Assembly: GCA_031362155.1 (NCBI GenBank)
Contig: JANLRZ010000185.1
Location: 6,282 to 70,281 of the forward strand
From: Acidimicrobiia bacterium
GTDB lineage: Bacteria > Actinomycetota > Acidimicrobiia > IMCC26256 > JAENVU01
Reading direction: 5' to 3'
Length of the DNA: 64,000 nt
Shown here: one piece after another, positions 2,291 through 64,000 of the stretch
Numbering within the stretch: position 1 is the first letter of the stretch
How the letters are laid out: the number at the start of each line of letters is the position of its first letter
Notes under the pieces: model-generated
Told to the model about the DNA's origin: nothing
Seen by the model: the letters and a program-made list of their open reading frames with translations, nothing else
The model's database searches: none
Translations under genes and position numbers: made by a program

Positions 2291-3283
2291 TCAGGCGGAC
2301 CCCTCGGGGGTGAGTTGGGCATCCCGCTCGGACCACTGGCGATCGAGCCACGCCGGGAACTCATCGCCTCGGGGAATCTCGGGGGCCGCGACTCGAGTGA
2401 TCGACACTCGCACCGGGCCTTCGAGTGGAAGCCGCGTCGCGGCGTCGGCGAGGCGGGCGAGCGCCTCGAAGCCGGTGTGCATGACAAACACCATGTCGGC
2501 GTCCGGCGCGCCGAGACGCAGGGCCGCAGTACCGCCCGGTCGGACGGGAACGAGATGACGGAGCGAGCGAACTCGAGCCCACCGCTCGGGATCCCGTTCG
2601 CCGATCGTCGTCATGGCCCGCTCTCGTCGTGCCGCCGACGCCACTCCGCCTTCGGGGAAGATGACCACGGCGTCGTATTCGGTGAGATCGTCGGTCAGCT
2701 GGCGGATGGCGCGCAGTTCCGGATCGTTGTCGGTGGGGTCGCGATCGACGAAATGATTCGGGAGTCGAGATCCGACGATGTCGAGACAGGGATCGGCGAG
2801 GAGTTCCGACATCAGGACGTATCGCGGTCGCATCCCTACCTGCCCGAGCAACCATGCGGGAATGAGTGAGTCGGCGATGCTCACGTGCCGCGCGCACACG
2901 ACCACCGGGCCTGGAGACAGGTGCTCGAGTCCCGTGATCTGGATGTCGAGGTTCGCCGTGACCTCCAGGAGGTTGACGAGGCGGCGGGCCCACCACCGCT
3001 GGAGCGCATAGTGAAGATCGTGATCGTCGCCCCGTCCGGCGAGCCACAGGGCAGTCGACGCCCCGACGCCGATCGATTCGAGCGACGACCAGCCGAACGC
3101 AGTGGCCAGGGTGCGGAGGCGTCGGAGGTTGCGATCGCCGGCAAGGAGGTCGAGCGCGAAGGCGCCGGGCGCCACCACGCCCGAGGTCGCGCCAAGCACC
3201 GTTGCTGTGAGTCCGACGGCGGGAACGGTCAGTGCCCGGCGGAGGTTCGGTCGTTGGAACCAGCCAGACGTTGTCAGAGCCAC
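2291..3283 (-). CDS. PlsC-family lysophospholipid/glycerol-phosphate acyltransferase
   Basis: HxxxxD motif (ARHVSIADS) and FPEGG motif. GTG start. Confidence 0.75.
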   Translation of the reverse strand: MALTTSGWFQRPNLRRALTVPAVGLTATVLGATSGVVAPGAFALDLLAGDRNLRRLRTLATAFGWSSLESIGVGASTALWLAGRGDDHDLHYALQRWWARRLVNLLEVTANLDIQITGLEHLSPGPVVVCARHVSIADSLIPAWLLGQVGMRPRYVLMSELLADPCLDIVGSRLPNHFVDRDPTDNDPELRAIRQLTDDLTEYDAVVIFPEGGVASAARRERAMTTIGERDPERWARVRSLRHLVPVRPGGTAALRLGAPDADMVFVMHTGFEALARLADAATRLPLEGPVRVSITRVAAPEIPRGDEFPAWLDRQWSERDAQLTPEGSA

Positions 3284-3370
3284 ACCGGCACGTTACCGAC
3301 GCCGACGGTTGTGCGGCCTGCGCAGCGCCCAGGTTCGCCCTCGGTGCCGCCGGTCGACGATCCTGGGGGC

Positions 3371-7096: not shown

Positions 7097-8014
7097 TCAT
7101 CGGCTGAGCGGCATCGCCTGAGGGTGATGGTGGTCGCCGTGATGGTGGTGCCCGGCGTCGGGGGTGGGGTGCCGGCTTCTCTGGGTCCGGGTTGCAACCA
7201 CCGTGACGATCCACGTCAGAAACGCCACGGTCACGATGCAGAAGCTCGGGGGGAGGTTGAACATCACGGCGAGGACGAGTCCGAGCCAGACGGCACCGAG
7301 GCTGAAGGTCGTCGCAAGGGTCAGTGTCGCCGCGGGCCGTGCAGTGATCGCAAGTGCTGCTGCCGCGGGCGTGACCACGAGGGCGAAGAGCAGCAATGTC
7401 CCGACCACCGGAACGGCCATCGTGACCGCGAGCGCGAGCAGCACGGTGAACGTCACGCCGAGTGCGCGTACGGCCACGCCTTTGGCCTCGGCCACCTGAG
7501 GATCAATCGATGCGAACAGGAGCGGTCGGCCGATCCCGACGAACGCGAGGAGCAGGAACGCGCTGAAGCCGGCGAAGACCTGAATCTGACTCGTCGAGAT
7601 TGCCAAGAGATTGCCGAACAAGACGTTGGTGACGGTCCGCGTGTTCTCAGTGGCGAGCGAGGCGAACAGCACGCCGAGCCCCGTGGCCAGTGCAAGCACG
7701 GAGCCGGTCGAGACGTCGCGGTTCGCGACCCGTTTCCCGAGGGTGCCGATCGCGAGTCCGCCGGTGATGCAGAACAGCGCGAGTCCCATCGTCACTGGCA
7801 TTCCCACCAAGACGGCGAAGGTCGCGCCCGGAAATCCGATGTGCGCGAGTGCGTGGGCCGCGAACGCGTCTCGACGGATGACGACGAAGTAGCCGACGAT
7901 GCCCGAGACCAGGGCGACGAGGGTCCCGCCCATCAAGGCGTTGCGCATGAAATCGGCCTGGAGAATGTCGAACCAGTTCGACTGGTAGCCGACCTCGGCG
8001 AGGAGGAGCGTCAT
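7097..8014 (-). CDS. znuB: Metal (Zn/Mn-type) ABC transporter permease with a His-rich C-terminal tail
   Basis: ABC-3 family permease pattern (..FMRNALMGG.., ..AHALAHIGFPGA..). The tail is ..HPTPDAGHHHHGDHHHPQ... A 4-bp overlap with the upstream ATPase gene. Confidence 0.85.
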   Translation of the reverse strand: MTLLLAEVGYQSNWFDILQADFMRNALMGGTLVALVSGIVGYFVVIRRDAFAAHALAHIGFPGATFAVLVGMPVTMGLALFCITGGLAIGTLGKRVANRDVSTGSVLALATGLGVLFASLATENTRTVTNVLFGNLLAISTSQIQVFAGFSAFLLLAFVGIGRPLLFASIDPQVAEAKGVAVRALGVTFTVLLALAVTMAVPVVGTLLLFALVVTPAAAALAITARPAATLTLATTFSLGAVWLGLVLAVMFNLPPSFCIVTVAFLTWIVTVVATRTQRSRHPTPDAGHHHHGDHHHPQAMPLSR

Positions 8015-8778
8015 TCGGGCTCACTTCTCGTGAATAGGTCACCTTGGGGCGTGCGGACGACCTTGATCGGCGTGTCGTAGAGATGGGTCAGGAGGTCACT
8101 GTCGACGACGTCGCCGATAGCGCCGTAGTGGGCATGACCGTCGAGCAGATAGATGGCGCCGTCGAGGATCGAGAGCAACGGGTTGAGGTCGTGGACGACG
8201 ATGAGCATCGTGATCGGTCGGGCCGTATGCAGCTCACGCAGCAGTTCCACGATCTGGTGTTGATGGTGGATGTCGAGATTCGCGAGCGGCTCGTCCAGCA
8301 GCAGCAGATCGGGGTCGCCGACCAACGCCTGGGCGATGGCGACCCGTTGCTGTTGACCGCCGGAGAGTTGCGAGAGCCGACGGTCGGCAAGATCGAGGGC
8401 CGAAACGGACGCGAGGGCTGCGTCGACCCGCGCATGATCGTCGGGGGTGCGCCGACCGAGGCCCCAGCGGGTCCCGGTGCGCCCGAGCGCGACCAGGTCA
8501 CGGCACCGGATGGCTTCGCCGATCTCGGCCGCGTAGCCCTGCGGGACGTACCCGATGCGCGGGTCGCCTCGGTGGGGAACCCCACCGAGAACGTTGAGGG
8601 TCCCACCGGCGGGCGGGAGGAGCCCCAGGATCATTTGGAGCAGCGTGGTCTTCCCCGATCCGTTCGGACCGATGGCGGCCACGATCGAACCGGTGGGAAT
8701 CGAGAAGGTTCCGTCGGACCAGATCTCGGTCCCGTTGCGGGCGGCGCGGGCGTCGACGAGTTCCAAGGCTGCCGTCAT
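8011..8778 (-). CDS. znuC: Metal ABC transporter ATP-binding protein
   Basis: Walker A GPNGSGKTT, signature LSGGQQQR, Walker B LLLLDEP. ATG at 8778 forms an ATGA overlap with the stop of the binding-protein gene. Confidence 0.9.
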   Translation of the reverse strand: MTAALELVDARAARNGTEIWSDGTFSIPTGSIVAAIGPNGSGKTTLLQMILGLLPPAGGTLNVLGGVPHRGDPRIGYVPQGYAAEIGEAIRCRDLVALGRTGTRWGLGRRTPDDHARVDAALASVSALDLADRRLSQLSGGQQQRVAIAQALVGDPDLLLLDEPLANLDIHHQHQIVELLRELHTARPITMLIVVHDLNPLLSILDGAIYLLDGHAHYGAIGDVVDSDLLTHLYDTPIKVVRTPQGDLFTRSEPE

Positions 8779-9680
8779 TTCACCAGTGCCTCGTCGAGTC
8801 GGGCGAGTTGGTCGAGTTGCCATGTGGCGAAGCGTGCGGAACGGGCCGGTTGGCTCTCGGTGACCTCGACGACGGGCACGCCGGCGCGGGTCGCGACCTG
8901 GCGCAGCCGTTTCGGGATCGCCCCTTGGGTTTGGGAATTGTCGATCAGGACGTCGATGCCGCCGTCGCGCAGGAGCGATTCGAACTCGGCAAGATCGGCG
9001 GGGCCGGGCTCGGACTCGTTGCTCGCCGCACGCTGGTAGCCGCCGGGCGTGCGGTTGAGGAGACCGAGCGATTCCGCCATCAAATCGAAGACACCTTCGG
9101 TCGCGGCGAATCGTCGTCCCGAATATTTCAGCTTCAGCTCGGCCACGGTCGCGTCGTACTGGCGCAGGGACGCGTTCCATCGGGTCAGCCGGTTCCGGAA
9201 GTAGGTGCGGGCCAACGGGTCGCGGCGAGAGAGTTCGTTGGTGATTGCCGTCGCGACCAGGTGCACATCGCTCGGCCGGTACCACCGGTGCGGGTTGGCC
9301 GCGCCGGGGCGAAGGCCGACGGTGCGACCGACATCGACGACCGTTGGCCGATGGTCAAGGACCGCGAGCGACTGGTCCGTCCAGGCGTCGTAGCCGAGTC
9401 CGTTCTTCACGAGGAGGTCGGCGTCGCTCAGCCGTGCGATGTCGGACGGCGTCGGCTCGAAGTCGTGCGGATCGGCGGTCGTGGTGAGGACGGTCGTGAC
9501 GCGGGCGCAGTCTCCGGCGAGCCGCGTGACCAGCTCACGCCACTGATCGACGCTGACGACGATACGACGGGCCGCCACCGGGCAGGCGCCGACCGGGCTG
9601 CTCGACGGCGCTGATGACGAACACGCACTGAGTGCGACGAGCACACCCACGGTGCTGATTCGTACCGACCAATGCCTCAC
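8775..9680 (-). CDS. znuA: Metal ABC transporter substrate-binding lipoprotein (ZnuA/TroA family)
   Basis: Signal peptide plus lipobox (..VGVLVALSAC). TroA-like body (..DPHDFEPTPSD.., ..NPHRWY..). I prefer GTG 9680 (AGGGGA 6 nt upstream) over ATG 9725, which lies inside the Zur-box palindrome. Confidence 0.85.
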   Translation of the reverse strand: MRHWSVRISTVGVLVALSACSSSAPSSSPVGACPVAARRIVVSVDQWRELVTRLAGDCARVTTVLTTTADPHDFEPTPSDIARLSDADLLVKNGLGYDAWTDQSLAVLDHRPTVVDVGRTVGLRPGAANPHRWYRPSDVHLVATAITNELSRRDPLARTYFRNRLTRWNASLRQYDATVAELKLKYSGRRFAATEGVFDLMAESLGLLNRTPGGYQRAASNESEPGPADLAEFESLLRDGGIDVLIDNSQTQGAIPKRLRQVATRAGVPVVEVTESQPARSARFATWQLDQLARLDEALVK

Positions 9681-9710
9681 GCTGATCCCCTGGTGACCAT
9701 CTGACGATGA

Positions 9711-9729
9711 AAGAATGATAGTCATTCTT
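9711..9729. promoter_or_regulatory. Zur/Fur-type operator in the znuA-zur divergent region
   Basis: Perfect AT-rich palindrome AAGAATGA-TAG-TCATTCTT in an otherwise GC-rich intergenic region, flanked by TGA/TTA. It resembles actinobacterial Zur boxes. Confidence 0.7.
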
Positions 9730-40404: not shown

Positions 40405-41574
40405 CTAGTCCAGCGGTTCGTTGGGGACTTCGAAGTACTCCTGGTAGCGGCGGGCGCGTTCGCGCATCTCGCCCTGGTCGAGTTCGGTCGCCTCCCAGGT
40501 GTAGGTGTGCACTCCGTGCGCGCCCTTCGGGTTGGCGGCGAGGTACTCGCGCATGCGTTGCTCGGTGGTCTTGGTGAGTTCGAGGCCGAGGGCGTCGTAG
40601 ATCGCGCCGATCGTGCCGAACGGGTCGGTCATGAACTCGGCGAACTGGAGATCGACGGCCCGATCGGACTTGACGATTCCCTGCTCGCGCGCGTCGACCG
40701 ACCGGTCGAGCCCGTCGAGGATGTACTCCGCGAACTCGATCGCGGCCTCGGGAATGGTCGTGTGATCCGTCGCGAGTTCCCGCAGCTTCGCGACGAGCGA
40801 GCTGATCGACGCCAGGATGCGGAGCGGATCGCGATGGGTTTGGACCAGGAGCGCGTTCGGATATTCCTCGAGCAACGCCGGCAGCGACCAGATGTGGCCC
40901 GGCGACTTCAGGACCCACCGATCGGTGGGGTAGTGGGACTGGAGGTGCTGGAGGAAGATCCGGTGCCAGTCGTAGAGGGGGGCCATGTCGGCCTCGTGGA
41001 GCAGCCAGTGACCGTAGGACGGGACCCGGTAGGTGGTGGGGAAGATCATCGAGCGGAACTCGGAGCCGGTGATGCGCACGCATTCCTGGGGAAGCTGGGC
41101 GCCCATCGGATGCATCGCCCGGAACTCCGGGAGGACCAGGTCGACCATGTCGAGGGTGGCGTCGACCTCGGCGATGCGCGGATCGGTGGCGTAGGTCTGC
41201 GGCTCGGGCGGGGGACACGGGCGGTCGACTTCCCAGGTGAGCGGCACCCGGGTGGCGGGGTCGAGGGCCAGAAGGTCATGCAGGATCGTCGTGCCGGTTC
41301 GGCCCTGGCCCACGATCACGATCGGCGGCACGACATCGACGTCGCCGATCTCGGGGTGCCGGGTGCGTTCCGCCGTGATCATGAGTCGGTCACGGAGGTA
41401 GCCGGTGATCTCACCAGGGACCATCGCGGCACCGATGTCGTTCAGATCGGCTTCGCGTTCGAACGAGTCGACCAGGATGTCGAGTGCCTCGCGCCAACTC
41501 GGGGGACCGAAATCGTCGAGGCCGGTTTCGAGGCTCGCGGCTTCGATGAGGGCTTCGGTGTCGATCGTGGTCAC
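40405..41574 (-). CDS. Sulfotransferase-family protein (paralog 1)
   Basis: PAPS 5'-phosphosulfate loop GQGRTGTTILHDLL, ..LKSPGHIWSLPALL..THRDPL... GTG 41574 chosen. The longer ORF extension overlaps the divergent gene. Confidence 0.75.
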   Translation of the reverse strand: MTTIDTEALIEAASLETGLDDFGPPSWREALDILVDSFEREADLNDIGAAMVPGEITGYLRDRLMITAERTRHPEIGDVDVVPPIVIVGQGRTGTTILHDLLALDPATRVPLTWEVDRPCPPPEPQTYATDPRIAEVDATLDMVDLVLPEFRAMHPMGAQLPQECVRITGSEFRSMIFPTTYRVPSYGHWLLHEADMAPLYDWHRIFLQHLQSHYPTDRWVLKSPGHIWSLPALLEEYPNALLVQTHRDPLRILASISSLVAKLRELATDHTTIPEAAIEFAEYILDGLDRSVDAREQGIVKSDRAVDLQFAEFMTDPFGTIGAIYDALGLELTKTTEQRMREYLAANPKGAHGVHTYTWEATELDQGEMRERARRYQEYFEVPNEPLD

Positions 41575-41623
41575 GGCCGACACAGTAGTGATAGACGATG
41601 CGGTGACGGATCTGGAGGGACCC

Positions 41624-42739
41624 ATGACATCGGACGCAATCGAGAGTCGTGCCGCGTACGACGATCTGCTCGCGGCGTTGGCTGAGGTGGCCGACCAGTT
41701 CGCTGGTGAGCTGTGGGGTATCGCCGGACCGGAGGACACTGCCGGTTCCCTGCGGGCGATCGCCCACTTGCTGGAATCCGGCCTCGTCGGACACTTCGAG
41801 GATGACCCGGCGACGCCGGTGTTTCGCGAAATCGGCTCGTCGACGCGCAAGGTGATGGGTGACAACGCCGACGCGATCTACTACGACACGGCGATCAGTC
41901 ACGCGAACGCGTATCGGGTCACCGGGAACGTGGCCGGTGCGATCTACACCTCGTTCACCATCGAGGAGGGCGGAGGCGACGGTGCCTTCCCCGAGCGTAC
42001 GGCCGACGTGCTGAACGACAGCCAGTTCGACGTCGCCGCCGACGGGACCTACGAGATCTACCTCGGCGGCCCCCGACGTGACCGCAACTGGATGGAACTC
42101 ACCCCGGCCGCCACACGCATCACGACCCGGCACTATTGGGAACAGATTTGGTCGCCGGGTGTCGCGCCGGTCCCCGACGTTGCGTTGGCCATCGAGGTCG
42201 TGGGCGAATCGAGTGCGCCACCGCGACCGAGTGACGCGTCGGTCGCCGCGGGGTTCCGTCGAGTCGCCAACTATGTGCGGTCCCGGTCGATCGGCATGGG
42301 ACCACCGGCGGATCGGATCCAGCCCTCGTTCGTGTCACAGGAACTCAACTCGTTCCCGGCGCCGGTGCCGCCGCAGGATCACCCGCTCGCGGCGATGGAT
42401 GCGGCCTACAGCATGGCGCCCTACGTACTCGGTCCCGATGAGGCGCTCGTGATGACCATGCGGTGGCCGGAGTGTCGGTGCGCCAATGTCAATCTGTGGA
42501 ACCGCACGCTCCAGACCTACGACTACCTGCATCGGTCGGTCTCGCTGAATCGGGCCCAGACCCACTTCGAGGCGGATGGCAGCTTCCGGGCCGTCATCGC
42601 CCATCGCGATCCCGGCGTCCCCAACTGGATCGACACCGAAGGCCGTCCGTTCGGTCTGGTGTTTTGGCGGTTCATGCTCCCCGAGGGGCCGATCGAAACT
42701 CCGCGGGCCGAAGTCGTCCCCGTCGACTCGCTCGCCTGA
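41624..42739 (+). CDS. DUF1214-domain protein
   Basis: ATG 41624 follows GGAGGGA. ..GDNADAIYYDTAISHANAYRVTGNVAGAIYTSFTI.. resembles DUF1214 family blocks. Confidence 0.6.
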   Translation: MTSDAIESRAAYDDLLAALAEVADQFAGELWGIAGPEDTAGSLRAIAHLLESGLVGHFEDDPATPVFREIGSSTRKVMGDNADAIYYDTAISHANAYRVTGNVAGAIYTSFTIEEGGGDGAFPERTADVLNDSQFDVAADGTYEIYLGGPRRDRNWMELTPAATRITTRHYWEQIWSPGVAPVPDVALAIEVVGESSAPPRPSDASVAAGFRRVANYVRSRSIGMGPPADRIQPSFVSQELNSFPAPVPPQDHPLAAMDAAYSMAPYVLGPDEALVMTMRWPECRCANVNLWNRTLQTYDYLHRSVSLNRAQTHFEADGSFRAVIAHRDPGVPNWIDTEGRPFGLVFWRFMLPEGPIETPRAEVVPVDSLA

Positions 42740-42755
42740 TCGGACCCACGCCCAA

Positions 42756-42808
42756 CGAACCAACGCGCGGAGCGCACCCCAGGGGGTGCGATACCGGCGC
42801 GGGTTGGG
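42756..42808 (+). repeat. Structured intergenic repeat, copy B
   Basis: CGAACCAACGCGCGGAGCGCACCCCAGGGGGTGCGATACCGGCGCGGGTTGGG starts 17 nt after the DUF1214 stop and ends 2 nt before the convergent sulfotransferase stop. Confidence 0.75.
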
Positions 42809-42810
42809 GT

Positions 42811-44100
42811 CTATTCCTCGGTGATGCCGTAGTGGGCGACGTAGCGGGCGAAGGTCGAGCGCACGTGGTCCTCGTCGAGGCCCACGGATTCGAACGTGTA
42901 GGCGTGTTTGCCGTGCTTGCCTTGGGGCTTGGCCTCGAGATAAGCCCGAATCCGGTCGTCGTGACCGGCGGGCCATGAGAAACCGAGCCGGTCGTACACG
43001 CCGTGGAGTTGGGCCACCGGGTCGGCCATGAGGTCGAGGAAGTGTGAGTCGACGATGCGTTCGTTCGGGATCGCGCCGCTTTCACGTTGGTCGATCGCGC
43101 CGTTGAGGAACATCTCGTAGGCCAGCTCCATCATGGGTCCGGTCGCCACCGGATCGGCCGCGTCGCTGCGCATGAACCGCACGACGCTCAACAAGCTGGT
43201 GAGCGACGCGATGAACTTTCGCGGGTCGCGGTGGGTGTGAATCACGAGCGCGTCGGGATACTCACCAAAGAGTTGTGGCAGCGACGAGATGTGCGCCGGC
43301 GACTTGAGGAGCCAGCGGCGGTCGGTGCCATCCGGGGTGGCCCCTCGTGGGTCGCCGGCGTATTGGAAGGTCTGCAGCATCCGACGATGGAGTCGGTACA
43401 CACGCTCCACCGCTTCCGGGTGCTCCATCTGCCAGCCCATGAAGCTCGGGGTGTCGTAGTGCATGGACCAGTACGGACCGGCGAAGTCGAAGGCAAGGAA
43501 GTGCACGCACTCACACGGCAGGTCAGCGGCCAGTTCGTGCATCGTCATGAAGTCCGGGTGAATGTCGGCCCAGAGTTCATGCTCACATTCTGCGAGCCGG
43601 CGGCGCTCGGCTCGATCCGTGGCCGGGTTGGATGTGGCGTCGGCCCGGCGGGGCAGCGGCTGGGCCGCCTCCCAGCCGAGCGGGGCGCGCAGGGCCGGGT
43701 CGAGCGCCAGCAACTCCAACAGGATCGTGGTGCCGGTCCGGGGTGGACCGACGACGAAGAGCGGGGCGTCGATCGCTTCCTCGGCGACTGCGGGCGTGGC
43801 GTCCCAGTGCGCCTGGAGGCGGAGCCACGTTTCGACCATCGCGGTGACCTCGGCCCGAGTGAGGACGCGCCCGAGGAGGTGCAACCCGCTCTCGGTGTCG
43901 ACCGACCCGACGAACGCCCGGAATGCCGTTTCCCAACCGTCCCACTCGTCGGTCGCGACGGTGTGGCGTCCCGTACTGGTCAGGGCCGCGTCGATGATCT
44001 CCTGGGCGTCCAGCGGTATCAGGGCGCGAGGGTCGCCCACGGTCTCGCCGAACAGATTCAGTCGTCGGACCCAGTCCGGATGACGGAGTGATTCGCTCAT
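42811..44100 (-). CDS. Sulfotransferase-family protein (paralog 2)
   Basis: GPPRTGTTILLELL loop, ..LLKSPAHISSLPQLF..THRDPR... Overall collinear with paralog 1. Confidence 0.75.
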   Translation of the reverse strand: MSESLRHPDWVRRLNLFGETVGDPRALIPLDAQEIIDAALTSTGRHTVATDEWDGWETAFRAFVGSVDTESGLHLLGRVLTRAEVTAMVETWLRLQAHWDATPAVAEEAIDAPLFVVGPPRTGTTILLELLALDPALRAPLGWEAAQPLPRRADATSNPATDRAERRRLAECEHELWADIHPDFMTMHELAADLPCECVHFLAFDFAGPYWSMHYDTPSFMGWQMEHPEAVERVYRLHRRMLQTFQYAGDPRGATPDGTDRRWLLKSPAHISSLPQLFGEYPDALVIHTHRDPRKFIASLTSLLSVVRFMRSDAADPVATGPMMELAYEMFLNGAIDQRESGAIPNERIVDSHFLDLMADPVAQLHGVYDRLGFSWPAGHDDRIRAYLEAKPQGKHGKHAYTFESVGLDEDHVRSTFARYVAHYGITEE

Positions 44101-44202: not shown

Positions 44203-46914
44203 TTGACCACACCGACCCGGACCCCAGGTGTCCCGAAGCAGACGGTCGATGAGATCGCCGCGAGTCGCACGGCCCAGAAGCTACCGGCGCCACCGGTCTT
44301 TCGGCGGGAGGTCGTCGCCGTCCCGGTCGGCGGGCGCGGCAAGAAGGTCGTCGCGGATCTCGAGGCTATTGCCTTGGCCAATGCGGAGGCCGCGGAGGAG
44401 GCGCGTCGGGTGGCGCTCGCCCAGCGCAGCGCGCTGGAAGAGATCGCCGCCGGACGGATGGAAGCCGAGCGCCTCGTCGCGCACATGAAGCACGAGATGC
44501 TCGAGGCGCAGGCCGAACACGAGCGACTGGTTGCTCAGGCCCGGTTCCGGGCCACCCAGGAAGAACGGCGTCGTCTCGGGGTGGACGTACTCGGTGGCGA
44601 CGCACCGTCGAGTCCACCGTCCAGTTCGGCCCGGCGCGGCCACCCACCGACCGCGGCGGGCAATCCCGTGGCGTCACCAACCTCGACACCGGAATTCCGC
44701 ACGCTGCAAACCCAGCTCGCCGAACGCGACCAAGCCGGCGAGTCGCATCGCCAACGCCTGCTCGAGGCGCTGCGCGAGCGAGATGCGGCCCGCCTCGAAC
44801 TCCAACGTGTCAGCGACGCGCGCATGCATGCCGAGCGGCGCCTGGAACGGGTCACCGAGGTGCTGCATCGGGCTACCAGCGCGGGTGGGCCGCGTCCGGT
44901 CGGCGGGGACGGGGTCGAAGAGCAGCACGTTCGCGCGCTCAGGGACGAACTTGCAGTAGCGATCGCGCGTGCGAAGTCGGCCGAGGCGCGCACGAACGAA
45001 CTCCGGGATGAGATCGAGTCGGTCAAGAACCAGCGGACGAGCACGTCGGAGACGCTCGAAGCGACGCGGGGCGATCTCGATCTGGCTCGCGAAGAACTGT
45101 CGGGCCTCCACGCGCGCCTGATCGGGCTCGAAGCGGCCCAGGGTGCAAGCGGTTCCGCGGGTGAGGAACTCGAAGCGGTGAATGCCCACGCCCGCGAGAT
45201 CGAACGCGAAGTCGTCGAGGCCCGCGGTCGAGCGGTGGCGGCGGAGCAACGGGTCGCGGAACTCACGGCCGCACTGGCGACGACGAGCGGCCACGCAGAT
45301 GAATCCGAGGCGACGATCGGGACCTTGAAGGTCGAGTTGGCCGAGGCCCGAACCGAGTCGGCGCGATCCGAAGCGAGGATGTCCGAACTTGCCGAGCAGA
45401 TGGCGCGCATCGAGGCGGATCTGGCCCTCGCCACCGCGGCCCACAACGAAGCGGAATCGCGGTTGCGGGCGACCGAAGGAGAACTCAGTTCGGTCGACGG
45501 TGCGCGGACCGAACTTGACGAGTACGTCGCCGAACTGCGTTCCACCGTTGAACGCCACGAGGCGCGAGTCGCCGAGCTGGAACACCAACTCGACGCCGCA
45601 ATCAGCGATCACGGCGCGCATGCGATCGACCTCGAAGCGACCCACGCCGCCACCGCGGCTGAGCTGACCTCGGCGTCGGCGCGCGCGGAGCACCTCGCGG
45701 CTGAGATCACCACACGGGACGAACGCATCCACCAGCTCGATGCCACGCTGGCGTCGACGACCGCCGAACTCGGCGAGCTGGTCGGGAGGAATGCCGAACT
45801 CGGTGGCGATTTGGCCAACCGCGATGCCCGCATCGCGGACCTGCAGGCGCAACTCCAAGCGAGCGCTGATGCCCGGGCGTTGGTAGAGGGCGAACGCGCC
45901 GATCTGATGGCCGCGGCGACCGCTTCAGAGGAGATGAGCACCGAACTGGAATCGCAACTCGCGGCCCTGGCCGCCGAGTTGGATGCGCGTGACGGTCGGC
46001 TGGAGGAACTCGATGCGGCGCTGACGGCAGCCGTCGCGGAGTCCTCGGCCGCCGCCGCGCAGCTCGACGAGTTGTCGGGGTTGACCGATCAGCTCGAAGC
46101 CGCATTGGCCGCGCACGCGCAGACGGAAGAGGCCCTGGCCACCGCACGGGCGGAGCGAGATGTGGCCGTGGCGCAGGCGGACTCACTCACCCTCGAGCTG
46201 GGCCAGCGGGCCACCGACATTGCCGACGCCGAGGCCCGTCGGGAACAGCTCGAACGGGAGCTGAGCATGGTCGGCGCAGATCATGGCGATGTCGTGCAAC
46301 GGCTCGACGACCTGACCGCGGAGTTGACGGGCCTGCGGGCCGAGCGGGATGCACTGAACGCGGCCCGCTCGGAGTTGACCGATCAGTGTGAAGCCATCGA
46401 GAGCGAACTTGGGGCCACTCGGGTGCGGGCCGAGGAAATGGAGATGACTCGATCAGCCGACCGGCAAGTCGCCGAGAAGGCCATCGCCGGGTTGCGAGCG
46501 AAAGCCGAGGTCGCAGCGGCCGCCCAGGCCCTGGCCGAGGAAGCGGTCGGGGAACAGCGCGCGCGACACGCCTCGGAGATGGAGCGTATGACCGCCGAGT
46601 TGGAGTCGGCGCGCCAACAGGTCGACGTGGTCGACATCGAACTCAGCCGACGGCGCGAACGCGAGGAGGACCTTCGCCACGCGCTGGCCGCGGCCGAGCG
46701 GGACCGGGCCGCCCTCGCCGAAGCACTGGCGGCCGCGACCGCGACCGGCGTCGCGCGATCGATACCGACGGCGGAGCCGCCTCCGGTCGAGGTTCGTCCC
46801 GATCCTGAGCCGGTGGTCTCGGCGTCGTCGTCGGCCCCGAACACGTCGACCCGACCCCCGTCGGATCTGCGCCGAGCGGTGTTCGCGAGCCTGACCGAAC
46901 TCGCGGGCGACTAG
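44203..46914 (+). CDS. Very long coiled-coil protein (903 aa), no recognisable enzymatic domain
   Basis: TTG start. Ala/Glu/Arg/Leu-dominated heptad-like sequence runs almost throughout. Two short Pro/Ser-rich linkers. No Walker motifs and no TM segment. Confidence 0.7.
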   Translation: MTTPTRTPGVPKQTVDEIAASRTAQKLPAPPVFRREVVAVPVGGRGKKVVADLEAIALANAEAAEEARRVALAQRSALEEIAAGRMEAERLVAHMKHEMLEAQAEHERLVAQARFRATQEERRRLGVDVLGGDAPSSPPSSSARRGHPPTAAGNPVASPTSTPEFRTLQTQLAERDQAGESHRQRLLEALRERDAARLELQRVSDARMHAERRLERVTEVLHRATSAGGPRPVGGDGVEEQHVRALRDELAVAIARAKSAEARTNELRDEIESVKNQRTSTSETLEATRGDLDLAREELSGLHARLIGLEAAQGASGSAGEELEAVNAHAREIEREVVEARGRAVAAEQRVAELTAALATTSGHADESEATIGTLKVELAEARTESARSEARMSELAEQMARIEADLALATAAHNEAESRLRATEGELSSVDGARTELDEYVAELRSTVERHEARVAELEHQLDAAISDHGAHAIDLEATHAATAAELTSASARAEHLAAEITTRDERIHQLDATLASTTAELGELVGRNAELGGDLANRDARIADLQAQLQASADARALVEGERADLMAAATASEEMSTELESQLAALAAELDARDGRLEELDAALTAAVAESSAAAAQLDELSGLTDQLEAALAAHAQTEEALATARAERDVAVAQADSLTLELGQRATDIADAEARREQLERELSMVGADHGDVVQRLDDLTAELTGLRAERDALNAARSELTDQCEAIESELGATRVRAEEMEMTRSADRQVAEKAIAGLRAKAEVAAAAQALAEEAVGEQRARHASEMERMTAELESARQQVDVVDIELSRRREREEDLRHALAAAERDRAALAEALAAATATGVARSIPTAEPPPVEVRPDPEPVVSASSSAPNTSTRPPSDLRRAVFASLTELAGD

Positions 46915-49110: not shown

Positions 49111-49944
49111 ATGCTCGCTGCAACCGTGCTGGCCCTGGCGGCCGCCTTGTTGCATGCAGCCTGGAACTTACTCATCAAAACTGCCGACGATCGCGATCTG
49201 GCCGCATGGGGTCAGTACGTCTTCGGGGCGGTGGCGCTGGCACCGGTCTTGGCGTTCACCGGCCTCCCGGATCTGGCGGCCTTGCCGTTTCTGGGCGTCT
49301 CGGCGGTCGTGCACATCTTCTACGTCCGGGCGCTCGTGGCGGCGTATGTCCACGGCGATTTCTCATTGGCCTATCCGCTCGCCCGAGGAGGAGGCGCGCT
49401 CGTCGCCTCGCTCGTGGGCGTGGTCGCGCTCGGCGACGGATTGAGTGTCGGCGGCTGGCTGGCATTGCTGGTCGTGTTCGCCGGGCTGGCGTCGTTGGTA
49501 CGGCCCGGGACGCCCCGGGTGGAGGTGGTGTACGCGTTGCTCACGGCGGTGCTGATCGGCACCTACACCGTGATCGATGCCGCGGGCGCCCGACACACGA
49601 GCAACGGGTTTGCCTACGGCGTGGCCCTGACCGGGATGAGTGGGCTGGCATTGTCGGTCGTCTACCTGGGCCAGGGCCGGGGGCCGGCATTCGCGGTATC
49701 GATACGCCGGGGCTGGCCTCGCCACCTCGTGTCGGGCATATTTCTGGCGACGGCCTACTCGTTGGTGCTTGTCGCGGTGCGATTCGCATCGGTCGCCTAC
49801 GTCGCGACCCTGCGAGAGTCCTCGGTCGTGCTCGGAGCCGGGCTCGGTTGGTTGGTCCTGCACGAACGACTCGGCGGGCGCAGGTTGGTGTCGGCCGTGG
49901 TCGTGACCGCGGGCCTGGTGGGGCTGATCGTGGCGCAGGTCTAA
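49111..49944 (+). CDS. EamA/DMT-family transporter
   Basis: About 10 hydrophobic helices in two repeats. ATG 49111 follows GGAAGGA. Confidence 0.7.
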   Translation: MLAATVLALAAALLHAAWNLLIKTADDRDLAAWGQYVFGAVALAPVLAFTGLPDLAALPFLGVSAVVHIFYVRALVAAYVHGDFSLAYPLARGGGALVASLVGVVALGDGLSVGGWLALLVVFAGLASLVRPGTPRVEVVYALLTAVLIGTYTVIDAAGARHTSNGFAYGVALTGMSGLALSVVYLGQGRGPAFAVSIRRGWPRHLVSGIFLATAYSLVLVAVRFASVAYVATLRESSVVLGAGLGWLVLHERLGGRRLVSAVVVTAGLVGLIVAQV

Positions 49945-51152
49945 CGCTCGCTCGAGAGTCGGACGGGAAGCTCTTTCAACGCGTTGTTCAGATTCGAACG
50001 CTGCCGACGGGCCGGACCGATCTGCGTGATGGTCGGGAAATAGTCGAGCAGTTCCTCGAAGAACACGCGACCTTCGAGCCGGGCGAGATGGATCCCGAGG
50101 CAGAAGTGCTCGCCGGTGCCGAAGGACAGGTGGGGATTCGGGTCGCGATGGATGTCGAACTCGTTCGGCCGCACGAACACCGTCTCGTCGCGGTTGGCCG
50201 AGGTGTACATCATCGCGACCTTGTCTCCCGCCTTGATCTCCGCGGGGCCGAGGGTGGTGTCGGCGGTCGCGGTCCGCCGGAAATAGTGGAGGGGATTGGC
50301 GTAGCGCAGGATCTCCTCGACTGCTGACGGGATGAGCGACCGGTCGGCCCGTAACTCCGAGAGTTGTTCCGGGTGGTCGAGCAGGGCCAAGAGGCCCGAC
50401 GACAACATCGTGCGGGTGGTGTCGTTCCCCGCGGTGACGAGCTGGACGAAGAAGCTTCCGAACTGGATGTCGGTCATCGCTTCACCGTCGACCTCGACGG
50501 CGAGCATCACGGTCGTGAGGTCATCAGCGGGCTCCGCCCGCCGTTGGCCGGCGAGACCGATCGCATACATCGCCATCTCGACCGTCGCGCTCATCGCCGC
50601 TTCGGCGGCGTCGGGGTCGGCCGCCATGATGTCGGGGTCCTGGCTGCCGGAGTTCATCTCCGACCAGTGATGGATCTTGGGCCAATCGGCTTCCGGGATG
50701 CCCATGAGTTCACCGACGACCTGGGACGGAAGCCGGGCGCAGACGTCGTGGACGAAGTCGAGGTCGCGGTCGGCGGAGTCGCGCATGATGGTCTGGCAAA
50801 TCTGGCGGATGCGGCCCTCGAGCTGGCCCATGACCTTCGGCGCAAAATGAGGAGACGCACTCCGTCGGTACCCGAGGTGGCGCGGCGGGTCCATCGCCAA
50901 GAGCATGTCTTGCATCATCGCCAGATTCTCGGGCGAGAGATCCTCGAGCACGACCCCTCCCGTCGCCGCCGAGTAGAGGAGTGGCTCGCGAGCCACCGTG
51001 ACAAGGTCGGCGTGGCGCAGCACGGCCCAATAGCCGGTGCCGTCGGGCATGTCCTGCCACACGACGGGCTGTTCACGGCGGAGCCGGGCAAAGAGTTCGT
51101 GGGGAGGACCCGCGACGTAGGAGTCCGGACTGTAGAAGTCGATCGCCGTCAT
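49941..51152 (-). CDS. Cytochrome P450
   Basis: Heme-ligand loop FGTGEHFCLG, I-helix ..AGNDTT.., EEILR (ExxR). Confidence 0.9.
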   Translation of the reverse strand: MTAIDFYSPDSYVAGPPHELFARLRREQPVVWQDMPDGTGYWAVLRHADLVTVAREPLLYSAATGGVVLEDLSPENLAMMQDMLLAMDPPRHLGYRRSASPHFAPKVMGQLEGRIRQICQTIMRDSADRDLDFVHDVCARLPSQVVGELMGIPEADWPKIHHWSEMNSGSQDPDIMAADPDAAEAAMSATVEMAMYAIGLAGQRRAEPADDLTTVMLAVEVDGEAMTDIQFGSFFVQLVTAGNDTTRTMLSSGLLALLDHPEQLSELRADRSLIPSAVEEILRYANPLHYFRRTATADTTLGPAEIKAGDKVAMMYTSANRDETVFVRPNEFDIHRDPNPHLSFGTGEHFCLGIHLARLEGRVFFEELLDYFPTITQIGPARRQRSNLNNALKELPVRLSSER

Positions 51153-51182
51153 CGCAGGTCCTCCCGAAGTTCAGTTCACGGC

Positions 51183-52217
51183 TCAGCAGCTCCGTGGTGC
51201 GAGCCACGCTACCGGGAGCCATCCCCGAGCGAGCGCCTGCACCGACTGGGTCGTCGCGAACGTGTTCACCGGCGGGAACGCGTCATTCGCGCTCGCGATG
51301 TGTCCGTCGGCGGCCTGTTGACTGCGCAGCCAGTTCACCGGGCTGCCGTAGGCCGTCCCCGTCTTCGCCGGACGCGCCGTGTCGCGCCAGCAGGACGTGG
51401 TGACGTCGAAGCCCGTTGCGGTAATGGCGACCACTGCGGTCGCAGTGGAGTTGGGGTCGTCCGCGCCGAACGCTTGCCACGAACCGTTCGCCTTCTGGTT
51501 GTCGGCGAGGAACTGGAGGGCCTTCACGAGGTTCGCGTCGGTCGAGGTCGCTTTGCCGGCCACCAACGCTTGGACCGCCAGGGCGGTCGAATCGACGTCG
51601 AGGTCGGTTCCCGTGTTGTCGCCCGCGAAGTTCCAGCCGCCGTTGGCCTGCTGGGCGGCACGGATCATTGCGAGCGTGGGTGCGGGCACGTCACCCGTGG
51701 TCTGCTGCTTGGCCAATGCGGCGTACAGCGTGGCGTTGAACGCTCCGTAGGAACCGTCGGGTGCCGCCCCGGAGTCGACCACCGCGACGAGGTTGCGGGC
51801 ACCATCAGACTGCGGATCGAACGCGGTCGGGCTCAGACCGAGAGGCTTGGCCACGAGCACGATCAGCTTCGCCGCCTGACCCGCGTTCAGCGTGCCGTCG
51901 GCGAAATCGTCGAGCGCGTCGAGTGCGGACTTGTTGTTCTTCTTCATCGCCAGCACCGCGTTGCGGGCCACCGTGGTGTCCCAGCCGAACTTGGTTTGGG
52001 CGGGTTCGGCGATGGCGACGACCGCATCGGGCGTTTCGAAGCCCGCGAATCCGGAGACCTCGAAGGAACCGTCGGTCTGTTGTTGAGATGCCAACCAGGT
52101 GGTGGCCTTGGTGAGCACTGGTGAGTTCTCCGCCACGCCGAACCCGGTGAATTTGCACCCGGAAATGGCGACGGCGGTGAACAGCGTGCCCACGAGCACG
52201 CGACGTAGGGATTGCAT
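51183..52217 (-). CDS. Lipoprotein with prenyltransferase / squalene-cyclase-type (alpha/alpha toroid) repeats
   Basis: ATG 52217 follows GGAGG. Lipobox AISGC. Repeated Q-x-x-x-G-(S/G)-(F/W) units: QQQTDGSF, QQANGGW, NQKANGSW, QQAADGH. Confidence 0.75.
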   Translation of the reverse strand: MQSLRRVLVGTLFTAVAISGCKFTGFGVAENSPVLTKATTWLASQQQTDGSFEVSGFAGFETPDAVVAIAEPAQTKFGWDTTVARNAVLAMKKNNKSALDALDDFADGTLNAGQAAKLIVLVAKPLGLSPTAFDPQSDGARNLVAVVDSGAAPDGSYGAFNATLYAALAKQQTTGDVPAPTLAMIRAAQQANGGWNFAGDNTGTDLDVDSTALAVQALVAGKATSTDANLVKALQFLADNQKANGSWQAFGADDPNSTATAVVAITATGFDVTTSCWRDTARPAKTGTAYGSPVNWLRSQQAADGHIASANDAFPPVNTFATTQSVQALARGWLPVAWLAPRSC

Positions 52218-52261
52218 GGAAGAACCTCCGGAGGCCCCTTTCCACGAGGGCCTCATGTCGT

Positions 52262-52432
52262 GCCGCAGGGTGCGGCGACGGATACGAGCGTCGGACCGGT
52301 CGGACCGACGGAGGGCGGCGGGGATCTGGCTCAGGAGCAGGTCGCTCCATCACAGTTGCGGGTCAGCGCCGGAATCACACCGGCTTCTCCCGTACCGAAC
52401 TCGGGCGGGACTCTAGACCTCAAGGGTGCGTT
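52262..52432 (-). promoter_or_regulatory. Cobalamin (B12) riboswitch in the 5' leader of the lipoprotein gene
   Basis: The minus-strand RNA reads ..GGUACGGGAGAAGCCGGUGUGAUUCCGGCGCUGACCCGCAACUGUGA.., which is the conserved cobalamin aptamer core. This is followed by a GGAGC/GCUCC hairpin and the B12-box-like GAGCCAGAUCCCCGCC. The RBS is embedded in the CCUCCGGAGG palindrome. Confidence 0.75.
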
Positions 52433-52476
52433 CGGCACAAACGCGACGCCCGCCCTGCTCGCGCCGACCGACTCGG

Positions 52477-52833
52477 TCAGGCGGCGTGGGCCCGGAGATC
52501 GTCGATGGTCGCCCATTCGAGGACGAGCGCGTGGGTTGCCTCCAGCACGACCTTCGGCGCGCGACCGGCCTCGAAGGCCTCGACCCACCGGGCTGCACAG
52601 AGACACCACTGGTCGCCGGGGGCGAGGCCGGGGAACCCGTACTCGGGCATCGGGGTCGAGAGGTCGTTGCCGACGCCGCGGCTGAAGTCGAGGAACTCGC
52701 CCGTCATCACCACGCAGACCGCGTGCAGCCCGACGTCTTCTCCGCCGGAGTTACAGCAGCCGTCGCGAAAGAACCCGGTGAGGGGATCGAAACTGCAGGG
52801 GACAAGTTCGGTGCCGAGCACGTTCTGGGCCAT
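52477..52833 (-). CDS. DUF2237-family protein
   Basis: ..LVPCSFDPLTGFFRDGCCNSGGEDVGLHAVC..GNDLSTP..PGDQWCLCAARW.. is the characteristic DUF2237 sequence. Confidence 0.75.
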   Translation of the reverse strand: MAQNVLGTELVPCSFDPLTGFFRDGCCNSGGEDVGLHAVCVVMTGEFLDFSRGVGNDLSTPMPEYGFPGLAPGDQWCLCAARWVEAFEAGRAPKVVLEATHALVLEWATIDDLRAHAA

Positions 52834-62433: not shown

Positions 62434-64000
62434 CTATTGCTCGCTCATGATGATGTCGAACTCGGTCGCCGGATCCCGAGTGCGGGCCGGGTCGTGCACG
62501 GAGACGGTGACGCGATGCAACGTGCCGGTGAATCGGAACGGCGCGGCGTAGCCGGGGCCGACGGGGGGACCCTGCTCCCAGCCGCACGTCATTCCCGCGC
62601 CGCTGATCGAGTGTCGCACCGGGGTCGTGCGCGGGATCTCGCCCGTGCCGATTTCCACGTCGTCGACGAGCAGGTGCACGGTCCCGGAGAAGTCGGGTCG
62701 TGCGTCGAAGCGCATGACCAACTCGTGAGCTCCGGGCCCGATCAGCGTGTCGGCCTCGACGGTGTATCGATCGCGGCCGACATAGTTGGAGACGTAGCGC
62801 AGGCACCCGTCGAGGACTTGGAACGACCACCCGCCCAGCACCGTCCCCATGGCCAACAGCACGCCCTGTGGCGCGTCGCCGACGGGAATGTCGACAGTCG
62901 CGCGCAGTTCGTGGGATCGACCGCGCACGTTGATCGCGTTCTCCTCCGGCACCGGTTGGTCGGTCGGCCAGAACACCGCGTGGTCCCGTTCGTGGAACGG
63001 TCGCCGGGGCGCGAGCAGCGCGGCGACGGGTCGGTTGTCGAGTGGGAGCACCTGATATTTCCGGGCTTCCTCCCACCAGAGGTCGATCATTGCCGCGAGC
63101 CGTTCGGGCTCGTCGGCAGCCAGATCGCGTGTCTCGCTCGGGTCGGTGCGGACGTCGAAGAGTTCCCACACGTCCTCGTCGAACGGCGCATCGGGATCGA
63201 GGCCGTCGTCGTACATGTGCCCGAGTGGCTTGAACGTCGCCGCTTTCCACCCGTCGTGGTAGATCGCGCGCGATCCGAGCATCTCGAAGTACTGGGTTGT
63301 GTGCCGCTCGGGCGCACCTGCGTCCTCGAGGAGGTAGGCGAAGCTGGTGCCCTCGATCGGAGTCTGGGAAATCCCGGCGATCTCCGTGGGCGCGTCGATC
63401 CCGATCAACTCCAACAGCGTGGGCAAGACATCGATCGCGTGCGCGAACTGGGGCCGGATCTCGTCGTGGGCTTGCAGCCCGGCGGGCCAGTGCACGATGC
63501 AGGGATCGGCGATCCCGCCTTCGTGGACCTCCCGCTTCCACCGCCGAAACGGCGTGTTGCCGGCCATGGTCCAACCCCACGGGTAGTTGTTGTGGGTCCC
63601 TGCGGTGCCGATCTCGTCGACGCGGGCGCGCAACTCTTTGCGCCCCGCGGGCACGCCGTTCCAGATGCGCGCGTCGTTGATCGAACCGAGTGAACCGCCT
63701 TCGGACGACGCGCCGTTGTCGGACACGACGACGACGATCGTGTTGTCGCGCTCACCCAACTCGTCGATGAAGCCGAGAACCCGGCCGATCTGCGCGTCGG
63801 CATGCGAGAGGAACGCGGCGAAGCACTCCATGAACCGCGCCGCGACGGCTTGATCTTCGGGGTCGAGGTCGTCCCATGCCGGCACCCAGTGGGGTCGGTC
63901 CGAGAGGGTGGTGCCATCGGGAAGGAGCCCCATCGCCTGTTGGCGGGCGAAGGTTTCGGTTCGCCAGTGATCCCAACCGCGGTCGAACTTCCCCCGGTAC
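62434..64000 (-). CDS. Arylsulfatase (type I sulfatase, large AtsA-like form); N-terminus lies outside the window
   Basis: Frame is open to the window edge (..YRGKFDRGWDHWRTETFARQQ..). ..VVVSDNGAS.., ..NYPWGWTMAGNTPFRRWKREVHEGG.. are sulfatase blocks. Large C-terminal beta domain. Confidence 0.85.
   Translation of the reverse strand, partial: YRGKFDRGWDHWRTETFARQQAMGLLPDGTTLSDRPHWVPAWDDLDPEDQAVAARFMECFAAFLSHADAQIGRVLGFIDELGERDNTIVVVVSDNGASSEGGSLGSINDARIWNGVPAGRKELRARVDEIGTAGTHNNYPWGWTMAGNTPFRRWKREVHEGGIADPCIVHWPAGLQAHDEIRPQFAHAIDVLPTLLELIGIDAPTEIAGISQTPIEGTSFAYLLEDAGAPERHTTQYFEMLGSRAIYHDGWKAATFKPLGHMYDDGLDPDAPFDEDVWELFDVRTDPSETRDLAADEPERLAAMIDLWWEEARKYQVLPLDNRPVAALLAPRRPFHERDHAVFWPTDQPVPEENAINVRGRSHELRATVDIPVGDAPQGVLLAMGTVLGGWSFQVLDGCLRYVSNYVGRDRYTVEADTLIGPGAHELVMRFDARPDFSGTVHLLVDDVEIGTGEIPRTTPVRHSISGAGMTCGWEQGPPVGPGYAAPFRFTGTLHRVTVSVHDPARTRDPATEFDIIMSEQ

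Follow-up and report, generated by a model that had tools for sequence, protein, structure and literature searches.

What is a cobalamin (vitamin B12) riboswitch doing in front of a gene whose product is a lipoprotein with a fold like that of terpene cyclases? The question is raised by a stretch of 64,000 nucleotides (nt) from an Acidimicrobiia bacterium (assembly GCA_031362155.1, contig JANLRZ010000185.1, positions 6,282 to 70,281), here called the window, in which such a gene stands between a riboswitch-bearing leader and a cytochrome P450 gene. An initial annotation, made from the letters alone, had proposed that the lipoprotein is an undescribed protein for extracytoplasmic corrinoid capture and that the P450 is probably under B12 control as well. 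Comparison with related loci lends the first of these proposals strong support. On the best interpretation, the lipoprotein forms the alpha-like half of a transcobalamin-like catcher of corrinoids that is split in two, would feed an energy-coupling factor (ECF) importer, and would be repressed by B12. A role of its family in corrinoid capture is the best-supported reading of the sequence data, and in our judgment a probable one, because B12-riboswitch control is nearly universal in the family and because it is associated with an ECF importer and with a partner that resembles the beta domain of transcobalamin. The kind of system is a known one, namely B12-regulated extracytoplasmic capture proteins that feed an importer; the lipoprotein family itself is widespread and uncharacterized.

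A cobalamin riboswitch accompanies the lipoprotein gene in nearly all relatives

Across both strands of the whole window, a single Rfam hit exceeded its gathering score. This was the cobalamin riboswitch RF00174 (40.7 bits; gathering score, 31.5; E = 7.7e-7), and it lies in the leader of the lipoprotein gene, where the initial annotation had placed an aptamer. The match spans the full model (positions 1 to 189) with an intact core and B12 box: the core reads GGGAGAAGCCGGUGUGAUUCCGGCGCUGACCCGCAACUGUGA and is followed by a short GGAGC/GCUCC hairpin, the B12 box is GAGCCAGAUCCCCGCC, and the GGGA/GCCGGUG...CCGGC/ACUG elements are present, with a core that does not vary among 10 related leaders. 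Relative to the model, one peripheral region has shrunk from 18 to 2 nt and the P6 region from 61 to 9 nt; from a very short segment before the B12 box, the initial annotation had suggested a compact variant aptamer. Judged by its sequence, this is the known compact cobalamin architecture without the P6 extension rather than a new variant, that is, a genuine riboswitch of an ordinary type. The 3' end of the aptamer lies 82 nt before the ATG. Minimum-free-energy folding of the whole leader was uninformative (z = -0.56) and did not recover the aptamer, and a scan of the leader for consensus promoters and terminators returned nothing useful. A hexamer of the form TAnnGT (TAGAGT in the window; 52410-52415, minus strand) stands immediately 5' of the aptamer and is kept in 10 of 10 aligned leaders; it may be a -10 element, a doubtful assignment that we do not rely on, as it stands about 4 nt from the first predicted P1 pair.

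The lipoprotein has at least 593 homologues, nearly all of about 345 amino acids (aa) and from metagenome-assembled genomes (MAGs) of Acidimicrobiia, which are annotated as “terpene cyclase/mutase family protein” or “hypothetical”; the exact window protein is also found on two short Logan contigs, with the same neighbors. For comparison we used 80 loci, numbered with the prefix L, with one Acidimicrobiia genome per species and relatives 44-98% identical to the window protein, and scanned all of them against Rfam at gathering thresholds. RF00174 was found upstream of the alpha-like gene and on its strand in 74 of these 80 loci, as would be expected had the initial annotation been right about the orthologues. 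Three of the misses are contigs with fewer than 300 nt upstream (L056, L063, and L074), and two further loci (L032 and L059) gave no RF00174 hit. The distance from aptamer end to start codon has a median of 81.5 nt; 67 hits fall within 300 nt, one is 364 nt upstream, and six are located about 1.1 kb upstream with another gene between. Since the flanking genes differ widely among loci, the riboswitch travels with the alpha-like gene and not with the neighborhood.

Some loci show peculiarities of their own. In L073, an RF00174 aptamer (3083-3222) lies directly downstream of the alpha-like gene, before the next gene (3131-4117), and none is found upstream. Tandem cobalamin aptamers occur 5' of the alpha-like gene in L016 (4424-4562 and 4803-4913), L020 (4513-4646 and 4793-4905), and L029 (4545-4647 and 4785-4896). 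The first aptamer of L020 has its own hairpin and Shine-Dalgarno sequence (4683-4713), followed by a mini-open reading frame of 24 codons (ATG at 4721 to TAG at about 4795) before the second aptamer, which could be a leader peptide or a gene remnant. Moreover, MAGs labeled Bifidobacteriaceae, Bifidobacterium breve, Acidobacteria, or Burkholderiales (L002, L012, L042, L045, and L059) carry a gene of the Acidimicrobiia type, with up to 83% identity and, in L002, the same synteny, which suggests mis-binning or mislabeled records.

A covarying hairpin abuts the Shine-Dalgarno sequence

Ten close leaders align well, and downstream of the aptamer their conserved element is a hairpin, GGCCC-UCGUGGAAAG-GGGCC, followed 1-6 nt further 3' by GGAGG, which is invariant in this alignment, and then by the start codon. 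The hairpin is kept in 35 distinct leaders, taken from alpha-like genes and from those of the beta-like partner described below alike, with compensatory changes in four of its five core pairs (e.g., GGUCC/GGACC, AGCCC/GGGCU, GACCC/GGGUC, and GACUC/GAGUC). None of 500 column shuffles reached the observed covariation, and slid controls were much lower. Leaders without the exact motif have the same hairpin with the variant loop UCGAGGA, such that the loop is conserved as UCG(U/A)GGA, and the L5 loop of the aptamer is invariant. No intrinsic terminator or terminator-like element was detected in the leader. The covariation points to this hairpin, abutting the Shine-Dalgarno sequence, as the real expression platform. 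The initial annotation had proposed sequestration of the Shine-Dalgarno sequence from two elements, only one of which is conserved: GGAGG and the adjacent hairpin are kept, whereas the self-complementary CCUCCGGAGG is not, and relatives carry CCUGCGGAGG or CCCACGGAGG in its stead.

By analogy with known compact cobalamin riboswitches, we infer that B12 binding docks the hairpin onto the aptamer through a loop-loop contact and thereby blocks the adjacent Shine-Dalgarno sequence. The only candidate kissing pair seen would join GUGG of the hairpin loop with CCGC of L5 by four pairs, with both partners invariant and no covariation. Plentiful B12 would then turn the gene off, probably at the level of translation, with the compact riboswitch acting through the hairpin that abuts the Shine-Dalgarno sequence.

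The lipoprotein is an exported toroid

The N terminus of the protein, MQSLRRVLVGTLFTAVAISG followed by C, is a signal peptide that ends in a lipobox of the pattern [LVI][ASTVI][GAS]C, and the lipobox cysteine is present in at least 90% of 22 aligned homologues. The protein is thus expected to be exported and tethered by its lipid to the outer side of the membrane. Two cysteines, C276 and C344, do not vary among the homologues, as expected for an exported protein. The sequence contains Q-x-x-x-G-(S/G)-(F/W/H) repeats and matches Pfam SQHop_cyclase_C (PF13243) with 34.1 bits (cut-off, 26.1), with weaker matches to prenyltransferase and TED domains, as would be predicted for the alpha/alpha toroid proposed initially. 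An AlphaFold2 model built from an alignment of 79 sequences (mean predicted local distance difference test [pLDDT] score, 91.4; predicted template modeling score [pTM], 0.89) shows an all-helical toroid after a disordered region of signal and tether. The chain of 344 aa consists of the toroid only, without the beta domain (DUF4430 fold), and it gave no match to Pfam Cobalamin_bind at E values up to 0.1. The score against the NCBIfam “SCO2321 family membrane protein” (NF053823) was 32.9 bits, below the curated cut-off of 300.

When the model was compared with the PDB by Foldseek, the top matches were single-domain class II terpene cyclases, namely, squalene-hopene cyclase (SHC)-like 8pak/8paj and MstE 6sbb (E of about 1e-5 to 1e-4; template modeling [TM] scores, 0.53-0.60). 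From rank 24 onwards, complement TED domains, alpha2-macroglobulin, and protein prenyltransferases appeared (E of about 1e-3 to 9e-3; TM, 0.28-0.51), and haptocorrin 4kki (E = 3.3e-3; TM, 0.50) and intrinsic factor 3kq4 (E = 3.6e-3; TM, 0.47) were ranked 28 and 29. The fold class that the initial annotation had named, that of the alpha6/alpha6 barrel of the B12 carriers, is right, and haptocorrin and intrinsic factor are still among the significant fold matches, which we count in favor of corrinoid capture; on the predicted model, however, the resemblance to transcobalamin is generic, with terpene cyclases coming first. Where the cyclases have their catalytic DVDDT motif, the window protein reads DVDST and the family reads D-[VI]-D-T-T. 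Both D207 and D209 are kept, whereas at position 210, which aligns with the third Asp of the DxDD motif, the window protein has Ser and about 90% of the relatives have Thr.

Long forms of the alpha-like protein, of 450-660 aa and with a C-terminal extension, are encoded in L047 (4839-6674), L048, L050, L057, L058, L060, and L066. The extension in L047 consists of about six repeats of the type GYWLFASDGGVFTFGDAAFFGS and has no Pfam match.

Conserved partners are an ECF transporter and a transcobalamin beta-like protein

To identify the genes that accompany the alpha-like gene, all open reading frames (ORFs) of the 80 loci were clustered, and the counts were redone by tblastn. One recurring set encodes an ECF transporter with a T component (Pfam CbiQ, PF02361), a fused double ABC ATPase (AA'), and an S component (PF12822). 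Of the 80 loci, 41 carry the T or S component, and at least three arrangements occur among them. Most often the order is S<-AA'<-T, divergent from riboswitch->alpha-like. In the second, all genes share one strand in the order T-AA'-S-riboswitch-alpha-like (L004, L005, L007, and L081), and in the third the order is riboswitch-alpha-like-T-AA'-S (L022 and L024). A search of the S component against PDB sequences, made for relatedness to CbrT, gave no match.

The other recurring neighbor, found in 38 of the 80 loci and usually immediately 3' of the alpha-like gene, is a beta-like protein of about 300 aa with a signal peptide, a Cys-rich domain of 120 aa, a Pro/Thr/Ser-rich linker, and a C-terminal membrane anchor. 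Its occurrence agrees with the expectation that orthologues of the lipoprotein would sit next to genes of the DUF4430 type, although only 2 of 16 members weakly match Pfam DUF4430, the transcobalamin-like C-terminal domain (best E = 1.7e-6). Many members fall in PF28005, “SCO2322,” by precomputed annotation, and a profile of the domain had no match among PDB sequences. Its relation to transcobalamin becomes clear only from the weak DUF4430 hits and a fold search. For the latter we modeled P0172, a beta-like protein from a genome whose alpha-like protein is 72% identical to that of the window. The AlphaFold2 model has a whole-chain pLDDT of 75.3, with block means of 88-97 in the folded domain (about residues 25-140), and its best 14 PDB matches are all transcobalamin beta domains (5no0; TM, 0.72 normalized to the 105-residue target); the first match to anything else in the PDB has an E value of 0.29.

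How the two exported proteins share their regulation is seen in L081: there the alpha-like gene and the beta-like gene point away from each other, and an RF00174 aptamer with the same downstream hairpin precedes each of them. Hence, unlinked genes can form one regulon through separate riboswitches. In two other loci, L069 (4563-7229) and L080 (4638-7193), the alpha-like and beta-like parts lie in one continuous ORF, in which the alpha part ends with an LPRTG sortase signal, a transmembrane segment, and an Arg-rich tail and then runs in frame into the signal peptide of the beta-like part. Given the LPRTG and the separate beta signal peptide between the parts, we give the ORF less weight than a genuine fusion of domains and take it as evidence of linkage only, counted as a single event because the two genomes are close relatives. 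Finally, in 31 of the 80 loci, including the window, the alpha-like gene has neither ECF nor beta-like genes nearby.

Taken together, these associations suggest that the alpha-like toroid is a component of a split, transcobalamin-like system for corrinoid capture across the Acidimicrobiia. In most related genomes, its first partner would be the secreted or membrane-anchored protein with the fold of the transcobalamin beta domain, and the second would be a dedicated transporter of the ECF type, made up of T, S, and the fused AA' ATPase, which carries the corrinoid into the cell. Both the binding of the corrinoid and its hand-over to the ECF transporter are steps that we infer. In the genome of the window, the alpha-like gene is unlinked, its partners presumably reside elsewhere under riboswitches of their own, and the gene has come to precede a P450 gene and is probably cotranscribed with it.

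The locus in the window and the P450 gene

The coordinates of the features are given in the table. Within the 64-kb window, tblastn detected no ECF T or S gene and no beta-like gene, and Pfam annotation of about 50 ORFs revealed no B12 biosynthesis gene, B12-dependent enzyme, BtuFCD, or ECF transporter, which bears out what had been said of the window regarding BtuFCD and ECF genes. The sole ABC importer detected is of the ZnuA/ABC-3/ATPase metal type (7097-9725), and the ATPase of this importer explains a weak tblastn match of the ECF ATPase at 8137-8715. Because no ECF or beta-like gene occurs within the 64 kb, the alpha-like gene of the window is an orphan without linked partners, as in the 31 loci mentioned above. 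The transcription unit has at most two genes, since a convergent EamA-type gene overlaps the P450 stop codon.

Table. Features of the lipoprotein and P450 locus, in window positions
Feature	Position	Strand	Remarks
DUF2237 gene	52477-52833		Pfam, 174 bits
Leader of the lipoprotein gene, 259 nt	52218-52476	-	Between the stop codon of the DUF2237 gene and the ATG at 52217
Cobalamin riboswitch aptamer (RF00174)	52300-52414	-	Without peripheral P6 extension; cmscan, 40.7 bits
Expression-platform hairpin GAGGCCC/GGGCCUC, P13-like	52254-52231	-	Core stem GGCCC/GGGCC, conserved loop UCGUGGAAAG
Shine-Dalgarno sequence of the lipoprotein gene, GGAGG	52229-52225	-	1 nt 3' of the hairpin, 7 nt before the ATG
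Lipoprotein ORF, 344 aa, alpha-like, alpha/alpha toroid	51183-52217	-	Lipobox AISG/C
Spacer, 30 nt	51153-51182	-	Carries the P450 Shine-Dalgarno sequence GGGAGGA; no hairpin or terminator
Cytochrome P450 ORF, 403 aa	49941-51152	-	Pfam p450, 86 bits (cut-off, 22.8)

The P450, in which the Cys-ligand motif FxxGxHxCxG is present as FGTGEHFCLG, follows the lipoprotein gene just as described initially, with its own Shine-Dalgarno sequence and no hairpin between. An orthologous P450 (81-98% identical) was found by tblastn downstream of the alpha-like gene in only 7 of the 80 loci, those closest to the window (L001-L003, L006, and L008-L010), with a spacer of 25-45 nt and a conserved Shine-Dalgarno sequence in all seven. 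Judging from this arrangement, lipoprotein and P450 are likely cotranscribed in this clade. The sister genomes L004, L005, L007, and L081, whose alpha-like proteins are 72-74% identical, have ECF genes in place of the P450, and although L081 has a P450 gene three genes away from its beta-like gene, the product shares only 35% identity. We accordingly rejected the P450 as a conserved member of the B12 regulon, which weakens the initial proposal that B12 controls it. If control acts at the Shine-Dalgarno sequence of the lipoprotein gene, the P450 need not be regulated, as it has one of its own; any B12 control of the P450 would need polarity or mRNA stability effects. No functional link between the P450 and B12 was seen, and this part of the finding is of little consequence.

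The remainder of the window is rich in oxygenases: TauD, two PhyH, two 2OG-Fe(II), an FMO-like and a luciferase-like monooxygenase, a fatty-acid hydroxylase, and MpaB/Lcp, located at 40405-44100, at 62434-63999, and at many sites between 13 kb and 62 kb. Two Sulfotransfer_3 genes and one sulfatase gene are also present, and none of these genes is B12 related. At 44203-46914 (plus strand), the longest ORF of its region encodes 903 aa from a TTG start. Its codon bias is weak, Pfam gave no hit for it, and it is overlapped by several ORFs of the minus strand, so that the coding content at about 44.1-46.9 kb is only putative.

Corrinoid capture and its alternatives

Several observations weigh against the corrinoid capture reading and have to be set beside the evidence given above. 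Class II terpene cyclases, and not haptocorrin or intrinsic factor, are the structures nearest to the model of the alpha-like protein, and no sequence link connects it with transcobalamin: phmmer and profile searches of PDB sequences recover cyclases only. Corrinoid binding is a putative function of both the alpha-like and the beta-like family. In the commonest layout, the riboswitch serves the alpha-like and beta-like genes, and the divergent ECF operon has no detected riboswitch. The window itself lacks both ECF T/S genes and a beta-like gene. As for the regulatory mechanism, GUGG:CCGC is a candidate kissing-loop pairing of four pairs only, with the U replaced by A in many leaders. Last, the ligand named for the most similar system described so far is a different one, as discussed next.

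Among the alternatives, the one that survives best, although we consider it unlikely, is that the alpha/beta/ECF system imports another large ligand, be it heme, some other tetrapyrrole, or a cobalt complex, and that B12 regulates it indirectly. B12 riboswitches also control cobalt transporters, a precedent for such regulation, and the T component matches the CbiQ family. Furthermore, the cluster lsa1836-1840 of Lactobacillus sakei, which has the same architecture, was reported by its authors to contribute to heme uptake (bioRxiv 10.1101/864751). On the other hand, the presence of a cobalamin aptamer in 74 of 80 loci favors a substrate that is related to B12, the S component belongs to PF12822 and is not of the CbiM/CbiN type, the partner model matches specifically the corrinoid-binding beta domain of transcobalamin, and a 35-kDa toroid together with a beta domain would be oversized for a metal ion.

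A second alternative, which seems to us quite improbable, accepts that the lipoprotein binds corrinoid and dispenses with ECF import: the protein would be a stand-alone surface store or competitor, or would pass its ligand on to a different transporter. The lack of linkage in the genome of the window and in many others would then be accounted for, given the 31 of 80 loci without nearby ECF and beta-like genes, and the reading would fit the ECF operon of the divergent layout, which has no detected riboswitch of its own. Yet the adjacency to ECF genes has been kept through several rearrangements, and separate riboswitches, as on the alpha-like and beta-like genes of L081, allow unlinked genes to share a regulon. 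That the lipoprotein is instead an enzyme of the terpene cyclase/prenyltransferase superfamily, forming with the P450 a small terpenoid or lipid-modifying pathway tuned by B12, is very improbable. In its favor, the best fold matches are single-domain class II terpene cyclases, SQHop_cyclase_C is above cut-off, D-V-D-S-T aligns with DVDDT of squalene-hopene cyclase with D207 and D209 conserved, and the P450 follows 30 nt downstream with no terminator between. Against it, Ser replaces the third Asp of DxDD (position 210) in the window protein, as Thr does in about 90% of relatives, export as a lipoprotein separates the protein from isoprenoid diphosphates, only 7 of 80 loci have the P450 next to the gene, and instead of genes for terpene synthesis the conserved neighbors encode an ECF importer and a transcobalamin beta-like protein.

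The corrinoid capture reading, for which the riboswitch (74 of 80 loci), the ECF genes (41 of 80), and the beta-like partner (38 of 80) provide the comparative support, would have consequences beyond this locus. By definition, ECF transporters work without extracytoplasmic substrate-binding proteins, a rule that would be broken by two exported proteins that are conserved, B12 regulated, and encoded next to an ECF module. For the B12 carriers of animals (transcobalamin, intrinsic factor, and haptocorrin), no bacterial counterpart is known to have been characterized; the alpha-like family and its beta-domain partner are a candidate that can be tested directly and may connect the bacterial proteins with the animal carriers in evolution. 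Acidimicrobiia abound in soils, fresh water, and the sea, habitats in which communities are shaped by the exchange of cobamides, and a new widespread capture system would alter genome-based prediction of B12 scavenging. It is tempting to speculate further that in Acidimicrobiia, and probably in other Gram-positive lineages, a split transcobalamin, made up of a lipid- or wall-anchored toroid and a beta-domain protein of its own, clamps the corrinoid outside the cell and passes it to a dedicated ECF S component, a tentative generalization that we regard as possible without leaning toward it. If true, this would be the first ECF transporter dependent on extracytoplasmic binding proteins, and the system would be a plausible prokaryotic relative of the animal carriers.

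Comparison with known systems

In its regulation, the locus resembles the class II cobalamin riboswitches (e.g., env8), which, according to Johnson et al. in 2012, reportedly lack the P6 extension and regulate through an L5-L13 kissing loop. The window leader shares the compact aptamer, with P6 cut from 61 to 9 nt, and a hairpin with a conserved loop by the ribosome-binding site and no terminator. It differs in that the Shine-Dalgarno sequence is just 3' of the hairpin and not inside it, and in that the pairing of L5 is a candidate of four pairs without covariation.

As surface or periplasmic capture proteins under B12-riboswitch control that feed a membrane transporter, BtuF and the Bacteroides lipoproteins BtuG, BtuH, and BtuJ are comparable (PMC13616437, PMC12751083), whereas their folds are unrelated and they feed BtuB/BtuCD-type systems instead of ECF transporters. 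A recent review and a research article on bacterial cobamide-binding proteins mention neither transcobalamin nor haptocorrin. For ECF transporters, the use of the membrane S component as the binding protein is stressed in the ECF-CbrT paper (PMC5997447), which also describes the B12 cluster nrdJ-cbrS-cbrT-pduO of L. delbrueckii without explaining the nature of CbrS; CbrS may merit comparison with the alpha-like and beta-like families.

The families SCO2321 and SCO2322 of Streptomyces (NF053823 and NF040672; PF28005) provide another parallel, as alpha-like proteins weakly match the former and beta-like proteins match the latter. The scores are far below the cut-offs (33-54 bits versus 300 and 19-33 versus 85), as for distant relatives only. 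Consecutive locus numbers suggest that SCO2321 and SCO2322 are adjacent in Streptomyces. Our literature search for functional work on SCO2321/SCO2322, bacterial DUF4430 proteins, toroid-fold B12 binders, or CbrS found none.

The only precedent that we found in the literature is the in silico description of L. sakei lsa1836-1840, comprising ECF S, AA', and T components together with the transcobalamin beta-like Lsa1839 and the transcobalamin alpha-like Lsa1840 (bioRxiv 10.1101/864751). The claim that the lipoprotein represents an undescribed kind of protein was thus nearly right, since transcobalamin alpha- and beta-like proteins by an ECF transporter had already been proposed there. Among the relatives of the window protein, the same five-part architecture occurs, an ECF module by two exported proteins, one a prenyltransferase-like toroid and one transcobalamin beta-like. 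In contrast to L. sakei, the organisms are Actinomycetota of the class Acidimicrobiia, cobalamin-riboswitch control is nearly universal in them whereas the L. sakei text names no riboswitch, and in the window the alpha-like gene stands alone; the likeness is one of architecture.

The comparison with the animal carriers themselves is one of fold and construction. Unlike in the transcobalamin family, the two parts are separate polypeptides here, anchored to lipid, membrane, or wall, sequence similarity is not detectable, and the alpha-like fold is nearer to terpene cyclases. Like transcobalamin, on the other hand, the system includes a beta domain, which the model of the beta-like partner matches specifically, and among the matches of the alpha-like model are haptocorrin 4kki and intrinsic factor 3kq4, with E values of about 3e-3. 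On these models, a toroid and a small beta domain would together enclose a corrinoid, as they do in transcobalamin, intrinsic factor, and haptocorrin.

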